From positions 949 through 64,948 of the forward strand of contig DAINBB010000001.1 in the NCBI GenBank assembly GCA_036733165.1: a stretch of DNA of 64,000 nt. The letters are read 5' to 3'. The first letter of the stretch is position 1. The number at the start of each line of letters is the position of its first letter. Positions 4,728 through 61,697 of the stretch are shown here, one piece after another. The DNA is from Halobacteria archaeon (GTDB lineage Archaea > Methanobacteriota_B > Thermococci > Methanofastidiosales > NM3). Position numbers and translations under genes: made by a program. The notes below the pieces were generated by a model that was not told where the DNA came from, made no database searches, and saw nothing but the letters and a program-made list of their open reading frames with translations.

Positions 4728-5744
4728 TCAGGCGAGGGGGTTTACCTTCCTCCTATTTATTTCCCAGTGGGAGATTCCAAGGCTTAGAGCGCCCATCAAC
4801 GAGGGGATCCAGAAGGATATGAATCTGTCAATTATCGTGACCCCAACGGCTATGGAAGGATCGATTCCAAACCCGGAGAACAAGATGATCATCGCGCCCT
4901 CCGTGGTCCCGAAACCACCCGGCGAGAAGGGGATCATTCCCATGAAGGTGGAGACAACTGCGACCACGGCCAGAACCGTAAAGGAGACCGAGACGCCAAA
5001 AGCCAAGAAGACCAGATAGGTCCTCAGTATCCAAAACGCCCATATCGCCATTGACAGGAGGGACGATACCACTAACATCTTCCTGTCCTTTATGAAATCC
5101 CTTATGGTGTCATTGAATAGCCTGAGCTTGTCATCAACCAGGTGTTCGTACTTGGAGGCCTTTCCAGGCGAAAATCTTTCAACAAGATTCATGAAAAACT
5201 TCACTATCCTTTTGCCCTGGTCAACATTGTAAACGATGTACATAACGGCCCCCACGATCCCTGTCAGGAAGACTATGGCTATGGTCAATGTTACAAGCAC
5301 CATTCCAGGAGGGTCCCAAAAGAACAGGATGTTGAATATTCCAAGATAACCCAAGAGAATGTAGGGCATGGTGTCGAATATCCTATCGGACAGGACGGTA
5401 GCGAAGGAGCTACTGTTGTCTATGCCGGTCAGTTTTGCCAGAAGGTAGGCCCTAAGGGGTTCACCCCCACCCTTTCCCATGGGTGTCACGTTGTTGACGA
5501 AAGCGCCCGACAGAAGGGATAGGAACAGCGGCCCTGAGGGCACATTGGGTTCCACGCAGTTGATTATGTTGCGCCACCTCATCCCACCGACATAGATCGA
5601 CGCCAGAGAGGCAACTGTAGCGAATATCACAAACGAGCTCTCCGCGCTTTGGAGGGCGTTCCATGCCTCGCTGAATCCCACCTTCCTGACAAGTAGGAAA
5701 AGGATCAGCAAGCCGATTGAAAACGTTACAGCCGTCTTGGTCAT
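4728..5744 (-). CDS. Lysylphosphatidylglycerol synthase TM / flippase-like (UPF0104) membrane protein
   Basis: NNVTPMGKGGGEP, PFSPGGFGTTE and IIDRFISFW motifs; start likely ATG 5744, 1 nt after the upstream stop. Confidence 0.88.
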   Translation of the reverse strand: MTKTAVTFSIGLLILFLLVRKVGFSEAWNALQSAESSFVIFATVASLASIYVGGMRWRNIINCVEPNVPSGPLFLSLLSGAFVNNVTPMGKGGGEPLRAYLLAKLTGIDNSSSFATVLSDRIFDTMPYILLGYLGIFNILFFWDPPGMVLVTLTIAIVFLTGIVGAVMYIVYNVDQGKRIVKFFMNLVERFSPGKASKYEHLVDDKLRLFNDTIRDFIKDRKMLVVSSLLSMAIWAFWILRTYLVFLAFGVSVSFTVLAVVAVVSTFMGMIPFSPGGFGTTEGAMIILFSGFGIDPSIAVGVTIIDRFISFWIPSLMGALSLGISHWEINRRKVNPLA

Positions 5745-5745
5745 T

Positions 5746-6858
5746 CTACTTTTGGTTATCACGAGAAAACACTCCTTTGACAAAGTTCACTAGGGTGTCT
5801 TTGTAGCCAAATTTAATCTCCTGATATGGTTCATTATAAAAATATATCCTAAGTACTACAAATAATATGCCTAATATCATGGGCCCGACGATGACGCCTA
5901 TGGCCCCAAAGGCGAAAAGTCCCCCTATCGCCCCTGCAAGTATGATGAGGGGATGGATGTTGGCGGCGTCGCCGGAAATCCTAGGCCTTATGTACATCTC
6001 CGGTATGAGGGATATGAATACATACGTCGTTGCAAGCACCACCAATGCATACTGATATTGGCCCTGGTATATGTACCAAAGGAACAGCGTCACCTGTATC
6101 ATCCAGGGACCTATGATAGGTATGAAGTCTATCATGCCAGTGAATATCCCAAGGAGAAGGGCGTGGGGCAACCCTAACAGATAATACACTATTACAGATA
6201 TGATGCCAGTGAAAATGGCCTTGAAGAGATATCCTATGATCACTGCCTGGAAGATGATATCTATGCTCCTTATCAGCTGCGTGAACTTATCCCTGAAGTT
6301 CACCGGTGCCAGTATGCACATCTTGTCGATGATCCTTTGGCTGTCCCTGAGAAAGTAGAAGGACATGACAAGGCTCAGCAGAAGCTTGAACAGCAATACC
6401 GGTATGCCCAATGTCAGGTTGAGGGCGTAGTCGTAGAGGACACCCCCCAGTTCGGTCGCCTTGGCCTGTATCGTGTCTATCGTGGACTGGCTCAGCGTAT
6501 CGAAGTCTATGAAGAACATCACCCTCTCGGTGATGTATTCCATAAGTTCGTCCGCGTTTGTTATCGATTCGCCTATGATGAGGGAGATGTCAGACTTCTG
6601 GAATGTCGACACCAGTTCGTTCAGGGTATACAGGCCTATGAACGTGAGGGGTATTATCATAAAGAACATGGAGATGAACACCGAAACGCCCTTGTTGGAG
6701 ACCTTCCTGTTGATGGAGTCGTGCATGGGGCGTATCAGGTAGGTGATGACTATCGCCATGACGAAGGCATCTATTATTGGCGATATGGTTTTTATGCCAA
6801 AATAAATCAATATCACGAAGGCAACTATGGCAGCGATCTCGGTGAGTCTTTTCTCCAA
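5746..6858 (-). CDS. AI-2E family (PerM-like) transporter
   Basis: Multi-TM protein; DFIPIIGP, YIRPRISG, HPLIILAG...GPMILG motifs. Confidence 0.9.
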   Translation of the reverse strand: MEKRLTEIAAIVAFVILIYFGIKTISPIIDAFVMAIVITYLIRPMHDSINRKVSNKGVSVFISMFFMIIPLTFIGLYTLNELVSTFQKSDISLIIGESITNADELMEYITERVMFFIDFDTLSQSTIDTIQAKATELGGVLYDYALNLTLGIPVLLFKLLLSLVMSFYFLRDSQRIIDKMCILAPVNFRDKFTQLIRSIDIIFQAVIIGYLFKAIFTGIISVIVYYLLGLPHALLLGIFTGMIDFIPIIGPWMIQVTLFLWYIYQGQYQYALVVLATTYVFISLIPEMYIRPRISGDAANIHPLIILAGAIGGLFAFGAIGVIVGPMILGILFVVLRIYFYNEPYQEIKFGYKDTLVNFVKGVFSRDNQK

Positions 6859-28995: not shown

Positions 28996-31122
28996 CTATT
29001 CCTTTATTATCTCGCTTGTCCACCCTGGGATGCCGGGGTTGCTTCCCTCATTAAGCATTTCCTGCCATTCCTCATCTGTCAGCCTGTTATCAAGGGGCTG
29101 CTTGAACTCATAGTAGGAGAACACAGGGCCCTGCACCACAAGAACCTCACCGTCTATCTCTACTATTACATAGATGGTATATGGGTACCCGACAGCTTCC
29201 TCAAGTACCATATAAGAGTTCACATCGGTATGCACATCGGCGACCAACGCTATCGACGAATCTGCCTCGGACTCAAGTTCGTTGCTGACCTCGGCGGAGA
29301 ACGTGGTTATGCTCTCAAGATAGGTGCCTATGTCGTTTATCAGCTCGAATTCGTTCTCTGTAAGCGACTCCGAGGAGATCTCCTTCTCCGATATCTCTAT
29401 CAACGACACAAGAAGGGAATCAAGCCCATCGTACTTTTGCTCAAGTTCGCTGGTGAGAAGGTCCCTTTCTGCCAGCCCGTCCCTGGCCATCCTTGTCAGG
29501 GCCAGCAGGCGGGAGTACATATATGGTTGCGGTTCCACATAACCGAGGGAGCTGTACTGTGGAGGCATCGATGTCGCCTCAAAGGTGTAGGACTGCTTTG
29601 CATAGAGTATCGTGTCATGCCTAAGCTCCGCCCAGGAACCCAGGGCCGTGTTGAGCTCCTTCAGCTCCCACATGTCCGATTGCATGAAGGACGGCCACCC
29701 ATCCTCTGCCTCGTCTGATAACGACTCCAGGGTGTAGAGCCATGAGATATAGAGATTCTTGGTCCAATCCTCTATAGTATACTCGCCGATCTCATCCTTT
29801 AGCATCTCTATCTGGGAATCATAGTTCACGTAGTCTGTGTCGCCCTCCTCTTCAAGGATCTCGGAGGCGTTGTCAAATCCCAATACGCTGAAGATGTCCA
29901 GGCCGCGGGGGAATCCCCTTATGGGTCCTGCGTCGCTATATACCAACGTGAAAGGTTCGTCATCCCCATAGTAGGTCAGCACATTGTTGTAGACAAGTTC
30001 AAAGAACATGTATGAGTCGACGATGAATCTCTGTCCCATGAATCTCAAGCCCTTTGTCTCGTCCTCCATGTCGTCCTGGTCCGTTATGACGCTTGAGTTT
30101 ATCCTTGGGTCGGGCAGACCCTTCGCCTTTTCCATGAACTGTTGAAATAGATCGTCGTCGTTCACATCCTCCAGTGCCACGGTATCACCATATACCTCGA
30201 CCATCACCTGCGCGTAGTCGTATATCAGGAGATCGTCCGCATCGCCGACGAAAAACGATGTCGTCAGGTATATGTCGTCCCAAAGGTCCATCGCATCGCT
30301 TCCGTCCTCTGTCTGAAGCCCCTGGACCGTCATCACAAGGAGAACTGCAGAGCGGGTCTGTTCAACGTCCTTGAGCCTATATGTCATCCTGCCGTACCAC
30401 ATCATGGCCCGGAAGTAGCGCTCAAGCGTTTCATTTCTCGTGTAATGCCCCCTGGGTTCATACTGGGAATAATCCTCCCTGTAACCAAAGAGGGGAGAGT
30501 AGTAAATTCCATCCGTGGCGTTGATGAGCCCCAGTTCGGAATCCACCATATCCTTAACGTACTCAGGTGCTGTGAAGTCCGGGTCCAACAGACTCATGGC
30601 CACGGAGAAGAATGCCACATTGAACTTCGCAGATTCCTTGAGATTTCCGTCGCTTGAGGAGTATATCTCCTCTGATCTCTCCAAGATGGCGGCGGTTATG
30701 TCCATGAGATCCTCATTGAATCTGTGCATCTCCGCGATTCTTAGGGAATAATCATACAATATATGGAAACTGTGCAAGATGGAATCGCTGGTGACAAATA
30801 TGGGAACTCCCATATCATTCAACTGATCGTAGTACTCATGGAACAACAGATCAGAGCCTGAAGGAGATATGACGAAACCGTATTGCATCAGCATTGCCTT
30901 CTGTTCATCTGAAAACACGTACAGGTCCAGATCCGCATCGCTGAAGTCATAAGGTTCGCTAGCCGGGTCTATCTCCATATCGATCTCTGAATATTCGGAG
31001 AAGCTGTCCATGCCATTCAGGGAAAGGGATATCCGTTCATCATCAATGTTTTCATTGCTTGAGATGCATCCCGAGATGGTCACGGTCATCAGCAGCATGA
31101 TCACCAATATTCTTTTTATCAT
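28996..31122 (-). CDS. DUF3160 family lipoprotein
   Basis: Lipobox-like ISGC; EDYSQYEPRGHYT, FRAMMWYGR, WAELRHDTILYAKQSY, LTDEEW motifs. Confidence 0.88.
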   Translation of the reverse strand: MIKRILVIMLLMTVTISGCISSNENIDDERISLSLNGMDSFSEYSEIDMEIDPASEPYDFSDADLDLYVFSDEQKAMLMQYGFVISPSGSDLLFHEYYDQLNDMGVPIFVTSDSILHSFHILYDYSLRIAEMHRFNEDLMDITAAILERSEEIYSSSDGNLKESAKFNVAFFSVAMSLLDPDFTAPEYVKDMVDSELGLINATDGIYYSPLFGYREDYSQYEPRGHYTRNETLERYFRAMMWYGRMTYRLKDVEQTRSAVLLVMTVQGLQTEDGSDAMDLWDDIYLTTSFFVGDADDLLIYDYAQVMVEVYGDTVALEDVNDDDLFQQFMEKAKGLPDPRINSSVITDQDDMEDETKGLRFMGQRFIVDSYMFFELVYNNVLTYYGDDEPFTLVYSDAGPIRGFPRGLDIFSVLGFDNASEILEEEGDTDYVNYDSQIEMLKDEIGEYTIEDWTKNLYISWLYTLESLSDEAEDGWPSFMQSDMWELKELNTALGSWAELRHDTILYAKQSYTFEATSMPPQYSSLGYVEPQPYMYSRLLALTRMARDGLAERDLLTSELEQKYDGLDSLLVSLIEISEKEISSESLTENEFELINDIGTYLESITTFSAEVSNELESEADSSIALVADVHTDVNSYMVLEEAVGYPYTIYVIVEIDGEVLVVQGPVFSYYEFKQPLDNRLTDEEWQEMLNEGSNPGIPGWTSEIIKE

Positions 31123-31303
31123 GGTAACATATCTCATTCCAAGGGATATAATAATTTCTATAGTATTCAATATTCATTGAACTTATGATTGTATAATGTA
31201 ATATACATGATTATCAATTAGAAATAAAATATAATAGAAATAAACAGAAAAAAGATAATATAAATCGAGATTGATGATTTTTTCTGGAAGAAAAATAAGG
31301 ATA

Positions 31304-36220: not shown

Positions 36221-36401
36221 ATGACCAAAACCTTTCTACTATGGGAGCTTAAATATTGTATGGTAATGTAAATTAATATTATCGTCGGGAAACGTTGGAA
36301 TAATAAACGGATATACATGAAATATACGGGAATATTTTTAATTAAGATTTATTATTCTTGAATAGAGAATATCCAAATGGACCACACTACGGGGTGTCCA
36401 A

Positions 36402-37565
36402 ATGTACGAGAGGATACAGGATTCTATTGAAAGACAACGCAGGTATAGAGATGGGTTGAAAGACGGCCTGATATGTGATTCCTGCGATATCGGCCCATGC
36501 CATCTTAGTGATTTCGATGACGATTTTCTTGCTCCCTGTGGCATATACAAGGAACAGGTGGTGCTGAAGAATCTTTCAGAAAAGATTGTTGAGGGGATGT
36601 CCGAGTACGGCGTCTACAAACACAATTTGACAAAGATATATGATCTTGACAGATTGATAAGATACGCATCGAGGATATTGCCCAAATCCATCGAATACGT
36701 CAAGATGATCGACACATTGTTCCAGGATTTTAGGATCCCAAGGATGGGATGTTTCGGCTTGGGCGGATTGGAGAAGGATGAGGTCAACATCTGTGCCATA
36801 GGCCCTCCAGACAAGATATACGACCTAATAGTCGATGCCCATGCCGATGGGAACGTTGAGAGGGTCCAAGGATGTGGCGCCAAGGGTGTGAATGTTGTAT
36901 CTCTCGGAGCGCCCGGCGCCGAGATGGCATACCAGACGGGCATACCATGTATCGGGAACAGCTTGTCCCTTGAGGATGCGTTGTCGACAGGGGCCATAGA
37001 TTCCGTGCATTTCGGCAAGAGAACGGACATCAGCATCCAGGAAGGGATAGAGAACTTCATCAAGAGGGACGGCAATAGTGTCAAACTTCCCCAGAAGACC
37101 TACTACAAGACGGGCCTCGATGTCGATGTCGACGCCATCAACAGGGGCTTAAGATCCGGAAGAATAGCCGGTACGGCGGTAATAGTTGGGGCCAGCAGCA
37201 TCAACTGCCACTGGGACATGGACAAGTTAGTGGACGAGCTTTTGAAGAGGGGCTATGTCGTATTCATCAATGGCGCCCATCTCTACAAGGGGACCGAACT
37301 TGACCCAACGGGACCCTCTGTCATACATCTGGGTTTCTGTGAATATGGCAAGACACTGATGATGGACCTCGACATCAAACCAACGATATTATTGCCCGGA
37401 TGGAAGAACGCGAAGTTGCTCACCGGGGCCCTGGGAATGCTGAGTGAAGGATACACTGTCATCAACGGAAATGATATCTTCGGTTCTGAGAAGCTCAAGC
37501 TGGACCTTGAGGATAGGGGGCTCAGCGTGATAAAGGACCAAAGAAGGCTATTGTCGCTTTTCTGA
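36402..37565 (+). CDS. Truncated, degenerate CooS/Hcp-superfamily (CODH-like) Fe-S protein
   Basis: CDSCDIGPC...CG B-cluster motif; GLGGLEKDEVNI, GIPC..S, TGAIDS, HLGFC and NAK align in order with CooS, but the protein is only 387 aa. Confidence 0.75.
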   Translation: MYERIQDSIERQRRYRDGLKDGLICDSCDIGPCHLSDFDDDFLAPCGIYKEQVVLKNLSEKIVEGMSEYGVYKHNLTKIYDLDRLIRYASRILPKSIEYVKMIDTLFQDFRIPRMGCFGLGGLEKDEVNICAIGPPDKIYDLIVDAHADGNVERVQGCGAKGVNVVSLGAPGAEMAYQTGIPCIGNSLSLEDALSTGAIDSVHFGKRTDISIQEGIENFIKRDGNSVKLPQKTYYKTGLDVDVDAINRGLRSGRIAGTAVIVGASSINCHWDMDKLVDELLKRGYVVFINGAHLYKGTELDPTGPSVIHLGFCEYGKTLMMDLDIKPTILLPGWKNAKLLTGALGMLSEGYTVINGNDIFGSEKLKLDLEDRGLSVIKDQRRLLSLF

Positions 37566-37594
37566 TGATTATATATTTATACCAATAGCGAAGA

Positions 37595-37852
37595 ATGTTG
37601 TTAATGACGGACGAGGGGGAGATGGGTTACAAAGATGTATCCTATATTCTGGGATTGAAAGTAATCCCTGGAAAAGAGAACGACATAAGGGAAAAAATAG
37701 AAAAAATCCCAGGTGTTTTCAAATCCTTCAAGGCCCTTGGACAATTCGATGTGATACTTATGGCCAAGGACCTCAAGGAGGCGAAGTCTGTCATGAAAAA
37801 GGTCAAGAACATTGAAAACGTCTTAGACGTTTTCTTCATTGAACTTGAATAG
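37595..37852 (+). CDS. Stand-alone Lrp/AsnC ligand-binding (RAM) domain protein
   Basis: ILGLKVIPGKENDIREKIEKIPGV...GQFDVILMA pattern; no HTH. Confidence 0.8.
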   Translation: MLLMTDEGEMGYKDVSYILGLKVIPGKENDIREKIEKIPGVFKSFKALGQFDVILMAKDLKEAKSVMKKVKNIENVLDVFFIELE

Positions 37853-37861
37853 GGTGGTACT

Positions 37862-38092
37862 ATATCAATAAAGGGCCTTATAGGCATTAGGACAGAGGAC
37901 TGCGAGATTCCCCGAAGGATCCTTGGGGAGATGCCTGAGGTCCTTATGATAAAAAAATCCAGAAACTACCATGACATGATCGCCATTGTAAAACATGATA
38001 GCATAGCTTCACTATCAGATTTCATTTTTCACAAGATCAGGGCTATTGATTGCATAAGAGACACGGAAACCACCATATTGTTGGAGGAATGA
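37862..38092 (+). CDS. Second stand-alone RAM domain protein; no ATG/GTG/TTG start at the domain N-terminus (ATA start or readthrough)
   Basis: Same frame as the upstream gene, after TAG 37850-37852: ISIKGLIGIRTE...MPEV...HDMIAIVKHDSIASLSDFIFHKIRAIDCIRDTETTILLEE*; the IRxIDxIxDTET ending is typical of RAM domains. Confidence 0.7.
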   Translation: MSIKGLIGIRTEDCEIPRRILGEMPEVLMIKKSRNYHDMIAIVKHDSIASLSDFIFHKIRAIDCIRDTETTILLEE

Positions 38093-39819: not shown

Positions 39820-40143
39820 TCACTTTTTGAGTATATCCTCAAGGATCCTTATCCCCTTGTTGAACGCCGGCATGCCTGCGGTCAGGAGCACCACCCTGAG
39901 TATGTCCACTATCTCCCCCTCGGTTATGCCAAGCTCTGCCATACCGGACCTCATCTGTTTTTCGGTCGCGTTTTCATCGCATTTTGACGCCACTATGCCG
40001 ATGGCGATCAGTTTTTGGGTCTTGTAATCCAGTTCTCTTCCAGTATATATTACCCCGTTGAGCTTGTTGATGCCCTCGTAGAGCTCCGGATACTTTTCCC
40101 TGACTATCCTCATGCCCTTGCCGTAATAGACTTCATCCTTCAT
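39820..40143 (-). CDS. Carboxymuconolactone decarboxylase (AhpD-like) family protein
   Basis: MKDEVYYGKG...LDYKTQKLIAIG...GITEGEI...AG; fused to sfsA in the ORF track only because of the sfsA frameshift. Confidence 0.85.
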   Translation of the reverse strand: MKDEVYYGKGMRIVREKYPELYEGINKLNGVIYTGRELDYKTQKLIAIGIVASKCDENATEKQMRSGMAELGITEGEIVDILRVVLLTAGMPAFNKGIRILEDILKK

Positions 40144-40174
40144 GAAGTATGATTTGTTCGCAAGAGATATAAAG

Positions 40175-40893
40175 CTATGTAGAGGGCAATGCAAGGGGGA
40201 TGGGCCCTTCATAGCGTATGGTCCTTGCATCGTAGGAAAAGAGGAGCGGATGCACGCCGCCTCATCTACTGCAACGGCAAGCCTCTCCGAGAACAGGGGA
40301 TCTGTATCTGTATTGGGGGAGAACACGGATGCATATGGGGCAAATACCAAGAATATGATATGGCCCTCTTCCCCAGACCTCACCGCTTCTATCAGCTCCG
40401 AGACATGCCTCGCGCCCCTCTTTGTAGGAGCGTCTGGGAACAGGGCCGTACCACCGACGGAGAGCGAACATCCCTTGACCTCCACCCAGCACCTTCTCGA
40501 CCCGTTGTCCAACATATAGTCCATCCTGCTCCGCCCCAGAACGGTCTCGGGCCTGATGAGGTCCTCATTTGACTGGAAAGGCATCATTCGATTTTCAAGC
40601 AGCCAATCCGAGACATGACGATGATACGAAGAGTTTGCGAGAACCCATCTATCCTTCACCAGGCCCGCCAACAGGTCCCATCCCGTCTTGCGTTTGGGAT
40701 TCTGCCCGGCACTGCGCAAAAGGACCCTGTTGCCTGGAAAGAGTATCTCGGACAGCCGGCCCGGGTCATGGATGTGGACAAGCGTCTGGCCCCCCTCTCC
40801 GCCCACGTCCGCCACGCCAAGGAATCTGTTCCTCCTTTGAATGAACTTCCCTTCGGCATCGGATGGGAGGTCCATCACTATCTGCGACGTCAT
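40175..40893 (-). CDS. sfsA: Sugar fermentation stimulation protein SfsA, frameshifted near 40258 as sequenced
   Basis: RRNRF, HIHDPGRL, VEVKGC, FPDAPTKRGARH; one extra G restores EAGVHPLLFSY...YEGPIP and the stop at 40175; span 719 nt (3n-1). Confidence 0.9.
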
Positions 40894-43247: not shown

Positions 43248-44825
43248 TTGAAACAGACTGTACTTGACACGATCATGGAGATCAGGGAGGAGATAGGCAT
43301 GGATTACAGATCGCCTGTCATAGTCAGGGTCTCCAAAAGCAGGGGCACTCTCTTTATCGAGTGCGAGGACAGGGCGGACAAGAGCATCGTGATAGGAACC
43401 GGAGGTTGGGTGGTGGGAAAGCTCACAGGCAGGCTCAACCTAAAGGATATCAAGGTCGAGTCAAGGCTTGACAACATCGTGAGAACCAGGGACCTGATCA
43501 ACTCCCTGAGGTCCTTGGATTCCTTGGAGAACGAGGAATTCGTGCATCTTTCAAAGGCGATCATACAGGGAAAGACACCTGAGGGCTGCAGAGTGTATGT
43601 CATGGGGGAGGAGATGATGTGGGCATGCGCAATGCTTGAGGACCTCGGTTGCAGTCCTGTGCTGCTACATACGGAATTCGTGCATGATAACGTGAAAGGG
43701 ACCTACGGCGGCACAGAGTTCCGCAAGGTGAAGGCCCCCATTAGCCCCTATCCCGAAAGGCTTGAGGCAATGGTGTCCTCGGTCCTTGACGACCCGGGAG
43801 ATGGGTCAGACCGGATATTTATGGGTCTTTTTGAGAAGACGCTGGAGGAAAGGGACGGCTCCATCCTTGTCAATCCGATGGAGTTCTATCGTATCGACCT
43901 TTGGCAGACAAGGAAATACTCAAGGAAAAGATTCAAGGAAAGGATATTTGAGCATTCCGATGAGAACAAGGGTTTCATGGTGCGCAAGGTGCTGGACTGG
44001 TGCTCCAATGGTTTGATAGAGCCCAACGACGCCGCAAGGATAATACACACCCATTGGACAGACGGCACTCTTATCAATGTCGGACGGACGGACATGGACG
44101 GCTTCACAAGGAAATATAGGGTAAGGAACTCGCTGTCAAGGTCCAAAGAGGTGTCTGAGGACGTCCATCGAATCCTGAACAACTACCTTACTGGGAACAA
44201 AGATCATATCGGTCTGAGGGCCCTCATCGCTTGGTCTGGAGGCATTGACAGTTCGGCCTGCATAGAGGTAGCCCTGAAGGCAGGGCTTGAGGCGGACCTG
44301 GTAACCGTCAAGATGCCGTTCATCGACATGATTGAACTCAGGACAAGGGCGGGTGCCATGGGGCTCGAACTCGGGGAGTTGGAACTGCCGGAAAGATATC
44401 CCAACATCTGTAAGAGCGTCGAGTCCGGAAACATCCATCCATGCGGTCAATGCTCGTCCATGATAGAGGAGGCCATAAAGGAGTATGCCATCGGGAAAGG
44501 ATATGACCTATTGATATTTGGGGACCTTCTCTCGGTCGGCTCCCAGTCGGTCCTTAGAGAAGATGGCCTGATATTGCTCAACCTTCCTGCGGCCCTTTCG
44601 CTTTCAAAGAGGGAGCTTATGACATTCTCGGAGGGACCAACTGAGATCAGTTTCGGATGCCCTCTTGTCAACATGGCGCATGGCATTAACAGGGACTCCC
44701 AGAGGATCTCCATCCAGAGGGTGCTAAGGGAACTGAGGGCCGGGATGCTGGACAATGAGCTGGCCCTGGAGCTTATAAATGACATCAAGACGCCCCCAGA
44801 AAGATATATATATGATATTTCTTAA
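43248..44825 (+). CDS. KH-like domain plus PP-loop ATPase (COG1365-like) with apparent internal duplication
   Basis: IVIGTGGWVVGKL, AWSGGIDS, HPCGQC, FGDLLSVG, GCPL motifs. Confidence 0.7.
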   Translation: MKQTVLDTIMEIREEIGMDYRSPVIVRVSKSRGTLFIECEDRADKSIVIGTGGWVVGKLTGRLNLKDIKVESRLDNIVRTRDLINSLRSLDSLENEEFVHLSKAIIQGKTPEGCRVYVMGEEMMWACAMLEDLGCSPVLLHTEFVHDNVKGTYGGTEFRKVKAPISPYPERLEAMVSSVLDDPGDGSDRIFMGLFEKTLEERDGSILVNPMEFYRIDLWQTRKYSRKRFKERIFEHSDENKGFMVRKVLDWCSNGLIEPNDAARIIHTHWTDGTLINVGRTDMDGFTRKYRVRNSLSRSKEVSEDVHRILNNYLTGNKDHIGLRALIAWSGGIDSSACIEVALKAGLEADLVTVKMPFIDMIELRTRAGAMGLELGELELPERYPNICKSVESGNIHPCGQCSSMIEEAIKEYAIGKGYDLLIFGDLLSVGSQSVLREDGLILLNLPAALSLSKRELMTFSEGPTEISFGCPLVNMAHGINRDSQRISIQRVLRELRAGMLDNELALELINDIKTPPERYIYDIS

Positions 44826-60414: not shown

Positions 60415-60642
60415 ATGGAGCCCCCGGACGCTGACAGGATAGGGAGGGAGCACAGGGACAGGCTAAAGAAGGTGAAAAGGGATCAGAGAAGGGCCTTTGA
60501 GAACATCGTCAAGCCGCCAGATCCAAAATCATGCAGATATTGCAAGCACTATGTGACGAAGGATGGGGAAAGCGGGTATTGCCTATTATGGAAAAAGGAT
60601 GTCAGGAACACAGATTCCTGCGATAGATTCTCAAGGGTATGA
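60415..60642 (+). CDS. Small Cys4 putative metal-binding protein
   Basis: CRYC-x12-C-x12-C; stop overlaps the next ATG (ATGA). Confidence 0.6.
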   Translation: MEPPDADRIGREHRDRLKKVKRDQRRAFENIVKPPDPKSCRYCKHYVTKDGESGYCLLWKKDVRNTDSCDRFSRV

Positions 60643-61697
60643 TGATGATTAGAGACCTTATAAAAAAATACAAAAACGCCCTCTCGATACTGTTCTCCAT
60701 CCTAATGTTGGTCCTGATATTGAGGCTTGTAGGTTTCAACGAGATGCTGAATGCCATCAGGGCCATAGACCGGGAGAACCTGACGCTTGCACTCCTGTTG
60801 TACGCCGCCTCCCTGTTGGTGGCAACCCTGAGATGGGACAGGATAATAGATGTAACAGAATACAATTCAAGATTCAAGACATTACTCCAATACTCACTCA
60901 TAGACAAGTTCGCGAACTCCTTCTTTCCGACGTCCGCAGTGGGTATGGCCCTAAGGTCCTACCTTCTGAACAAGGACTATGAAATGCCCAAGTCGGTGGG
61001 ACTTGCCACCATAGTACTCGACTACGGCGTCGACATATTCGGGACCTTCATGCTCTCAGTGCCTTTTTTCTTTATCATCAGGTCCGAGCTCTCAGAGTCC
61101 CTGATGCACACCTTCAGGACAAGCCTTCTGACAATAGGCATAGTGTCATTCATCGTCTTCGTGATCAGCTACTCGGAGCATGTGTTTGTGAGAACCAAAT
61201 ACGACAAGAAGATCAATCTCAGGGAACGTTCAAGATTGTTCAGCAAAATATCAGAACTGGGTATCAGCAAGAAGTTCATCGAGTTCTCGGAGACCTTCAG
61301 CCTGATATTGGAAAGACCGATAATCTTTTCCAACGCCCTCTTCCTTACGTTCTTCAAGGTCATGCTGGACGCCATAAGGATATCCATACTCTTCGAGGCC
61401 TTTGGTGTATCGGTGCCGTTCTACTACTTCATCCTGTTCGACAGCACCTGGACGTTCCTTGCGCCGCTGATGTTCACCCCTGGAGGTGTGGGCGTCATAG
61501 AGACCGGCAGGATAGCACTTTACTCATTGATACCCAACGTGAGCGTGGGAGTGATCACACCTGTCGTGTTCATAGACAGGCTGATCACATACTGGCTGAC
61601 CGTGTTCATCGGAGCGGTATTGTTCTTTCACAAGGGTATTGACATCAGCAGTTTGGGCGGGAAGGGCATCTCAGGTGCCGATGTCAAGCAAACGTAG
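60639..61697 (+). CDS. Second UPF0104 / lysylphosphatidylglycerol synthase TM flippase-like protein
   Basis: RW, NSFFP, TPGGVGVIE, DRLITYW motifs. Confidence 0.85.
   Translation: MMMIRDLIKKYKNALSILFSILMLVLILRLVGFNEMLNAIRAIDRENLTLALLLYAASLLVATLRWDRIIDVTEYNSRFKTLLQYSLIDKFANSFFPTSAVGMALRSYLLNKDYEMPKSVGLATIVLDYGVDIFGTFMLSVPFFFIIRSELSESLMHTFRTSLLTIGIVSFIVFVISYSEHVFVRTKYDKKINLRERSRLFSKISELGISKKFIEFSETFSLILERPIIFSNALFLTFFKVMLDAIRISILFEAFGVSVPFYYFILFDSTWTFLAPLMFTPGGVGVIETGRIALYSLIPNVSVGVITPVVFIDRLITYWLTVFIGAVLFFHKGIDISSLGGKGISGADVKQT

Follow-up and report, generated by a model that had tools for sequence, protein, structure and literature searches.

A miniaturized carbon monoxide dehydrogenase homologue of Methanofastidiosa-type archaea, probably a functional redox protein that is no longer a CO dehydrogenase

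Introduction

Carbon monoxide dehydrogenases (CODHs) are among the oldest metalloenzymes, and current work, such as that on CooS-V and the clade B CODH, asks how their scaffold copes when the NiFeS cluster is lost or replaced. We analyzed a 64-kb stretch of archaeal DNA, here called the window (contig DAINBB010000001.1 of assembly GCA_036733165.1, positions 949 to 64,948), and in it the gene at 36402..37565 (+ strand), whose ATG-initiated open reading frame (ORF) encodes a mini CODH-like protein of 387 amino acids (aa). An initial annotation had regarded this product as a miniaturized, probably catalytically dead CODH scaffold that keeps only the B-cluster. The reading that we favor, and to which we give a probability of about 0.62, is that the gene encodes a functional, lineage-specific protein that descends from a mini CO dehydrogenase once coupled to a hydrogenase and has ceased to be a CO dehydrogenase.

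The closest described systems include the full-length CooS enzymes (ChCODH-II, 1SU6; DvCODH, 6B6V; Thermococcus AM4, 6T7J) and the Mrp-Mbh-Codh complex of Thermococcus onnurineus (TON_1017-1031), which oxidizes CO and evolves H2 (PMC4731540), and in which CooS is full length with complete ligands and a maturation factor is encoded in the gene cluster. Shortened CODHs of 428-482 aa with helical-domain deletions have been described as mini-CooS or clade G (PMC3328121, PMC8776680); the mini-CooS of Thermosinus carboxydivorans has lost neither the His nor any of the 11 cluster Cys, and its gene adjoins cooF (PMC3328121). CooS-V (PDB 7B7Q) and the clade B RfCODH (PMC13592312) are full length and have kept the CODH fold and most ligands, with an altered active site and CO oxidation lost or strongly reduced. 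Surveys of Ni-CODHs set a minimum length of 550 or 400 aa and leave out sequences whose motifs are incomplete (PMC6344411, PMC8776680, PMC13240472), and it is because of such filtering by length and motif that the family of the window protein has stayed undescribed. The initial annotation had taken it for a candidate undescribed system, and our literature searches found no account of it, nor, in searchable papers, of the related mini-CODH of Theionarchaea presented below.

Results

A divergent homologue of Ni-CODHs

The product of 36402..37565 scored 43.6 bits against the Pfam Prismane model (PF03063; cut-off 27, E 2.2e-11), in an alignment that spans residues 118-202 only, and 61.3 bits against the CooS equivalog model TIGR01702 of NCBIfam, for which the cut-off is 478. 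A phmmer search of all PDB sequences matched Ni-CODHs only (ChCODH-II, DvCODH, RrCooS and the CODH/ACS beta subunit, E ~1e-11), and the combined family profile ranked the Thermococcus AM4 CODH (6T7J, E 1.3e-34) first among solved relatives. No HCP chain appeared in the PDB search, either with phmmer at E<=10 or with the family profile. An AlphaFold2 model built from a 13-sequence alignment reached a mean pLDDT of 82 and a pTM of 0.79, with disorder restricted to residues 1-45 (pLDDT <50), which include the B-cluster region. Among the 50 Foldseek matches listed all were Ni-CODHs (E ~1e-16, query-normalized TM 0.67-0.79), and together with the confidence of the model they assign the protein the three-domain CODH/HCP fold.

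The product is thus truly homologous to Ni-CODHs, if very divergent from them, as judged by searches that include the profile comparison to CooS and Hcp proposed by the initial annotation. It belongs to the Prismane/CODH superfamily, and because it lacks defining features, tested in each case, of CooS, mini-CooS, HCP and the Theionarchaea operon type, it is assigned to none of these four. With CooS it shares the fold, the B motif and its spacing, the C526 and K563 equivalents (ChCODH-II numbering) and the His that precedes the former; it differs in its length, 387 aa against ~630 aa, with most of the N-terminal helical domain deleted, so that its miniaturization, evident from the ORF and from deletions shared with its relatives, stands. 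Helical-domain deletions are also a feature of the shortened mini-CooS proteins, but these keep the ligands that the window protein has lost, and the profile of its family matched mini-CooS-like sequences (476-481 aa) at E ~1e-3 only. Compared with CooS-V and RfCODH, it has one of six catalytic ligands and has lost ~40% of the chain, and it is the most reduced repurposed CODH scaffold among those compared here.

Cluster ligands and new invariant cysteines

We mapped the ligands, in ChCODH-II numbering, from the phmmer alignment and from MAFFT alignments with full-length CODHs. The motif C25-x2-C28-x4-C33-x12-C46 (36474..36539, +) aligns with the B-cluster ligands C48/C51/C56/C70; it is invariant, with identical spacing, in the Methanofastidiosa-type (MF) subfamily to which the window protein belongs, in a Theionarchaea (TH) subfamily and in 25 of 25 full-length CODHs, and is predicted to bind a [4Fe-4S] cluster. 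The D-cluster is absent, the C47 equivalent (position 24) being I, V or T and the N-terminal segment with C39 missing. Of the six C-cluster ligands, five have gone as well. The loop equivalent to that of H261 reads CA(I/V/A)(G/A/S)P and holds no His, the C333-bearing segment is deleted, C446 and C476 are replaced by A264 and A292, and at the C295 position the window protein has A170, as does half of the MF family, the other half having Tyr. The sole canonical ligand left is C313, the C526 equivalent, in H309-L-G-F-C313 (37326..37340, +), where the preceding His is conserved too. K563 is kept as K338 in the loop PGWKNAKLLT (37395..37424, +), which holds the top-conserved 9-mer of the family; its acid-base partner H93 is replaced by an invariant Tyr, Y69.

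The pattern of kept and lost ligands agrees with what the initial annotation had listed for all three clusters, with the replacement of H93 as an addition that it had missed. With one of six ligands left, Tyr in place of H93 and no D-cluster, the window protein, judged from these alignments, cannot build a canonical [Ni-4Fe-4S] C-cluster. In that sense the description as a probably dead CODH holds, and the failure to reach the TIGR01702 cut-off accords with it; the notion of an empty scaffold does not follow, as the remaining Cys illustrate.

Besides the B-cluster Cys, four further Cys are invariant among the 12 full-length MF members over which invariance was counted (a 13th lacks only its N-terminus), so that the claim that only the B-cluster is kept is not borne out by the alignment: one of the four, C313, had been listed, and C131, C183 and C269 had been overlooked. 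C131 (36792..36794, +) lies four residues before the H261 equivalent, near the end of a strand (128-132) of the AlphaFold2 model; the position is Cys in 12 of 12 MF members, Val in the TH subfamily and A, I, V or L in CODHs. C183 (36948..36950, +), in the conserved segment GIPCIGN, is likewise Cys in 12 of 12 (L or F in TH; L, I, M or A in CODHs). C269 (37206..37208, +), five residues past the lost C446 ligand (A264) and just before helix 273-282, is Cys in all 12, mostly Ser in TH (Cys in 3 of 23) and V, I or L in CODHs. In the MF alignment 81 of 387 columns are invariant (21%), yet eight of the ten Cys of the window protein are, namely the four of the B motif, C313 and the three new ones. 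Eight of the 12 top-conserved 9-mers correspond to former cluster-binding loops: the K563 loop (PGWKNAKLL), the C295 loop (VSLGAPGAE), the B motif, the C526 loop (HLGFCEYGK), the C183 segment, the C476 loop, the C446 loop with C269 and the H261 loop with C131. By this measure of the alignment, constraint on the protein is strongest in the loops of the former active site, even though their ligands have been replaced.

A sister family in Theionarchaea

Starting from one distant relative (P0015), we collected 27 proteins of 330-397 aa (P0015 and P0157-P0182; 25 are full length, at 390-397 aa), and all with a named source come from Theionarchaea. With the window protein they share 28-30% identity, and P0015, which the MF profile matched over its full length (E 1.6e-46), has the same large deletions relative to full-length CODHs. 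A neighbor-joining tree (373 columns, 100 bootstraps, constructed without labelled CODH clade references) supported MF, TH and their union at 100/100 each. The grouping of MF and TH with three mini-CooS-like sequences reached 73/100, may reflect long-branch attraction and is not relied on.

The two sister clades have in common their size, deletions, B motif, Y69 and the absence of the D-cluster, and differ in the former active site. Counted over 23 TH sequences in window numbering, Cys occupies position 170 (C295) in 23 of 23, 264 (C446) in 21, 292 (C476) in 22 and 313 (C526) in 23, where the window protein has A, A, A and C and the MF family Ala or Tyr, Ala, Ala and Cys. TH proteins further carry an invariant Cys at position 212 (I, V or L in MF) and an invariant inserted His, an insertion that MF lacks; conversely, none has C131 or C183, and C269 is absent from 20 of 23. 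At ~392 aa, without H261, C333 or the D-cluster, the TH mini-CODH would, if it oxidizes CO, be an unusually small hydrogenase-coupled CODH.

The context of the TH gene differs too. In six of six distinct Theionarchaea-type contigs compared, the mini-CODH gene stands between cooF and 13 mrp-mbh genes (L007:6540-15179 and L009:6540-15185; also L008, L010 and L016-L018). The cooF-like gene encodes a four-cluster ferredoxin (154 aa, Fer4_11) and overlaps the mini-CODH gene by 4 nucleotides (nt), and the large subunit of the hydrogenase, a group-4 [NiFe] enzyme, carries both NiFe motifs (RICGICSMSH and DPCFCCTDR). JGI has automatically named several TH members 'hydroxylamine reductase'. This gene order mirrors that seen for the Mrp-Mbh-Codh cluster in T. 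onnurineus, and by analogy such an operon is likely to have been the ancestral setting of the window protein, an origin that the initial annotation had not recognized.

No such partners accompany the window gene. Among the 31 of 61 predicted window genes scanned with Pfam, none is a cooC, cooF, ECH or ACS partner gene, all matches being to housekeeping-type families, and tblastn with the Theionarchaea cooF and mbhL found nothing in the whole window. The Wood-Ljungdahl pathway is kept in Theionarchaea and lost in Methanofastidiosaceae and NM3 (PMC9635834), and the loss of canonical ligands and adjacent partners in MF coincides in this respect with the loss of the hosts' CO/CO2 metabolism.

These comparisons suggest a sequence of events. 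The common ancestor of Theionarchaea and Methanofastidiosales would have had a CODH-like protein of ~390 aa, one from which the D-cluster, the C333 segment and the bulk of the N-terminal helical domain had already gone. Encoded in a cooF / mini-CODH / mrp-mbh setting, it would have served as the electron-input module of an energy-converting [NiFe] hydrogenase, an arrangement kept in Theionarchaea. In the MF lineage the Wood-Ljungdahl pathway was lost and cooF and the hydrogenase genes no longer stand beside mini-CODH; there, C295, C446 and C476 would have been replaced by Ala (Ala or Tyr at C295), and C131, C183 and C269 would have become fixed.

Distribution and selection

A search of 5.8 billion clustered proteins, by protein and then by profile, retrieved 13 MF members of 363-404 aa (the one of 363 aa lacking its N-terminus), 42-73% identical to the window protein, and all named sources are Methanofastidiosa-type metagenome-assembled genomes (MAGs). 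One member carries the automatic label 'carbon-monoxide dehydrogenase catalytic subunit'. An exhaustive hidden Markov model search of 1.84 billion cluster representatives found three MF-family representatives only; the next match was the distant full-length relative P0015, and ordinary CODHs followed after a gap, at E 1e-16. When one genome per species (185,579 species) was scanned by pattern, eight loci emerged: five in Methanofastidiosia-type MAGs (one so labelled, the others deposited as 'Methanomicrobia archaeon', NM3 and 'uncultured Thermococci'), two in Theionarchaea and one of Theionarchaea type whose MAG bears the label 'uncultured Thermococci'.

In the comparison with L001, the nearest relative (73% aa identity), dN was 0.186 and dS ~3, which is saturated; as dS in this comparison is saturated or undefined for most genes, the resulting omega of <= ~0.06 is an upper bound. 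Identities to the orthologues in four relatives were 73/43/42/45% for mini-CODH, against 76/67/67/67% for pelota, 81/56/55/60% for pyrH, 82/49/48/54% for MscS and 68/34/35/36% for the Thioredoxin_9 protein, so that mini-CODH is comparable to the neighboring MscS. The gene is under purifying selection and maintained, and its 13 intact orthologues leave no sign of the neutral decay that the initial annotation had named as a possible refutation.

Promoter-like elements and neighboring genes

Upstream regions were aligned by eye, a sigma-70 promoter scan being unsuited to an archaeon. A B recognition element (BRE)/TATA-like element, GGGAATATTTTTAATTAAG (36328..36346, +), precedes mini-CODH as a putative promoter, and a comparable element lies 55-95 nt 5' of the mini-CODH ATG in six lineages (GGAATATTTTTAAT is identical in the window and L001, and a GAAACCTTTAATA-type box occurs in L004, L014, L005 and L006). 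In the window a GGGGTG Shine-Dalgarno sequence (36391-36396, +) stands before the start codon. A promoter of its own, divergent from cofE, is thus plausible for mini-CODH, as the initial annotation had it, with the conserved element as its candidate. Between the mini-CODH stop codon (37563-37565) and RAM1 lies, by comparison among genomes, a TATA-like box, ATTATATATTTATACC (37568..37583, +); each of the six MF lineages with RAM1 has a comparable A/T box in this position, which suggests that RAM1-RAM2 is a separate transcription unit. With its own conserved upstream element and this box behind it, mini-CODH looks monocistronic.

The two downstream genes had been reported as RAM-domain genes, and both exist. 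RAM2 (37862..38092, +; a stand-alone RAM domain protein of ~76 aa with an apparent non-canonical ATA start) passes the Pfam AsnC_trans_reg threshold (36.2 bits, cut-off 25), and RAM1 (37595..37852, +; a small stand-alone RAM-like protein of 85 aa) stays below it at 17.9 bits. RAM1 probably has 82 aa, from the ATG at 37604, which lies ~25-30 nt after the TATA-like box and aligns with the RAM1 start of L001, and its transcript may be leaderless or have a short leader. Orthologues of both genes occur in six of seven distinct MF lineages and in neither L005/L013 nor the TH loci. In view of this absence and of their own conserved TATA-like box, the RAM genes were downgraded as partners of mini-CODH; the proposed link is weak, and RAM1 is probably a neighbor rather than an obligatory partner.

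The start of RAM2 was of note in itself. Where L004 (7575-7805) has ATG, the window has ATA, L001 (7461-7691) ATC, L011 (1525-1752) ATT and L006 (7515-7742) ATC, with no ATG, GTG or TTG, and each of these near-cognate codons lies 4-6 nt past a GGTG Shine-Dalgarno sequence. In the window (37853-38092), L011 and L006 the RAM2 frame runs straight on from the RAM1 stop. From sequence comparison, RAM2 seems to start at a near-cognate AUH codon that is conserved.

The survey of the wider neighborhood proposed by the initial annotation gave little functional signal. All Methanofastidiosa-type genomes compared share the order deoxyhypusine synthase, pelota, cofE (-), mini-CODH (+), RAM1, RAM2, pyrH, Thioredoxin_9, tRNA-splicing endonuclease, SfsA/CMD, MscS, diadenylate cyclase and AMMECR1, with an aldehyde:ferredoxin oxidoreductase gene next after AMMECR1 in L004-L006. 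Because this ~13-kb block of housekeeping genes is collinear throughout, as vertical synteny of the whole block, we rejected the neighborhood as a clue to function.

A link to F420 was likewise considered, cofE being adjacent, as are frh genes in one genome, and found no support past adjacency. The latter genes, at L006:2545-5785 (= L012) of one Methanofastidiosa-type MAG, are inserted between cofE and mini-CODH and divergent from the latter; they encode a NiFe-hydrogenase large subunit (HoxH/NiFeSe_Hases), a HycI-type maturation protease and a 514-aa small-subunit/FrhB fusion, an frhA-frhD-frhG/B-like set. A small coiled-coil-like ORF of 59-60 aa (MEEQLKILKERL...) is conserved 5' of mini-CODH at L004:5470-5649 and L006:2248-2430, with no counterpart in the 181-bp intergenic region of the window or in Theionarchaea.

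Other features of the window

The SfsA/CMD gene of the window (39820-40893, -) is a single 357-aa ORF with SfsA_N, SfsA and a C-terminal CMD (carboxymuconolactone decarboxylase) domain; in L001 and L004 SfsA and CMD are two adjacent genes, so that in the window the two genes have fused or a stop codon has been lost. Two ORFs, at 76-918 (+; 280 aa) and 43248-44825 (+; 525 aa), had no Pfam match at E<=1e-5, and the latter has a 512-aa counterpart at the same place in L001, also without a Pfam match. A 724-aa DUF3160 protein (28996-31170, -) matched its Pfam family end to end (E 1e-202), and two paralogous LPG_synthase_TM membrane proteins are encoded at 4728-5783 (-) and 60639-61697 (+).

Discussion

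The window protein is best viewed as a descendant of a hydrogenase-coupled mini CO dehydrogenase that has a function other than the ancestral one; in molecular terms, it is probably not a CODH but a functional redox protein in which a B-cluster is combined with a remodelled pocket. This reading spans both a second cofactor in the remodelled site and a cofactor-free pocket, and we hold a remodelled functional pocket to be at least as likely as an empty scaffold. The protein would be a homodimer, as are all CODHs, with one B-type [4Fe-4S] cluster per subunit on C25/C28/C33/C46. As there is no D-cluster, the B-cluster would be the direct contact for a ferredoxin-like partner and the point of electron entry or exit. 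Electrons would pass between it and a pocket made of the old C-cluster loops (residues 128-136, 166-174, 178-186, 263-273, 287-295, 309-317 and 332-341), in which a substrate, or else a simpler Fe-S or metal site, would be held by C269 and C313, and to which C131, C183, H309, E314, K335 and K338 may contribute.

Several observations weigh against this reading. Positions 131, 183 and 269 are hydrophobic (A, I, V or L) in 25 full-length CODHs, and instead of serving as ligands the new Cys could simply be part of the buried core. C183 opens a strand of the AlphaFold2 model and, if the sheet is parallel, would face away from the canonical cluster site, and the alternation of Ala and Tyr at position 170 argues against conserved binding exactly there. 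The B-cluster region is disordered in the model, as is expected in a prediction without metal. In addition, the loss of the cooF and mbh partners is seen at the level of the locus only, and mini-CODH evolves faster than pelota, cofE and pyrH.

Some of these points feed the alternative that survives best, which is that of the initial annotation and which we nonetheless consider unlikely, namely that side chains fill the old active site or nothing does, that C131, C183 and C269 are buried structural residues and that the protein is a small [4Fe-4S] electron carrier, a redox or gas sensor or a scaffold subunit relying on the B-cluster. The loss of five of six C-cluster ligands, the hydrophobic residues of canonical CODHs at the three new Cys positions and the Ala/Tyr alternation at the C295 position would all be expected under it, and the bulky invariant residues F312, Y295 and W271 could fill the cavity. 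Yet the old active-site loops, PGWKNAKLLT included, are the most conserved part of the protein, which is hard to explain for an empty pocket; that eight of ten Cys are invariant, against 21% of all columns, points the same way, and a scaffold of 387 aa would be a costly carrier for one cluster.

A more specific and decidedly improbable proposal is an HCP- or CooS-V-like reductase, in which an Fe-S(-O) cluster in the pocket, fed by the B-cluster, reduces hydroxylamine, NO or a similar substrate; it is a special case of the remodelled-pocket reading rather than a true alternative to it. Such a protein would belong to the same superfamily, CooS-V (PDB 7b7q, among the PDB and Foldseek matches) demonstrates a CODH scaffold with a hybrid-type cluster, and the name 'hydroxylamine reductase' given to the sister family, if only automatically, would fit. 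However, no HCP chain was matched in the PDB at E<=10, no Glu/His-rich hybrid-cluster ligand pattern was identified and no contextual link to nitrogen-oxide stress genes was seen.

That the protein is still a CO dehydrogenase, with a NiFeS cluster rebuilt on C131, C183, C269, C313 and H309, is very improbable. Four invariant Cys and one His outside the B motif could provide ligands, the K563 equivalent is kept, and the sister family is coupled to a hydrogenase like true CODHs. Set against this are the absence of H261, the replacement of H93 by Tyr, the score of 61 bits against the 478 required by TIGR01702, the lack of cooC, cooF and hydrogenase genes in the window (31 of 61 genes by Pfam; cooF and mbhL by tblastn) and the loss of the Wood-Ljungdahl pathway from the host lineage. 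Also missing is the helical-domain segment of full-length CODHs in which the proton-transfer residues of CODH-II lie. Finally, a non-functional relic in slow decay, to which the departure of partner genes from the locus and the faster evolution than neighboring housekeeping genes might point, is effectively refuted by conservation, the gene being intact in every lineage (363-404 aa, no frameshifts), with omega <= ~0.06, 81 invariant columns at 43% pairwise identity and a conserved promoter-like element and Shine-Dalgarno sequence.

The remodelled-pocket reading also has a bolder form, which we put forward as speculation. The MF protein may contain a metal site hitherto unseen in a CODH scaffold, its cluster or metal having moved to C131, C183, C269 and C313 (with or without H309 and E314), fed by the B-cluster and carrying out chemistry peculiar to these methyl-reducing methanogens; the 392-aa TH sister, for its part, may be the smallest known hydrogenase-coupled CODH-type enzyme, the inserted His and C212 completing its cluster. 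If this were true, the MF and TH families would form a stepwise natural series of active-site rewiring in one scaffold.

At ~60% of normal length and with one of six catalytic ligands, the MF family is nevertheless conserved across a whole archaeal order, and because its sister family still resides in a CODH-hydrogenase operon, the direction and the context of the change can be read. For the organisms themselves, the labels 'carbon-monoxide dehydrogenase catalytic subunit' and 'hydroxylamine reductase' carried by members of these families are unfit for inferring CO metabolism in Methanofastidiosa.

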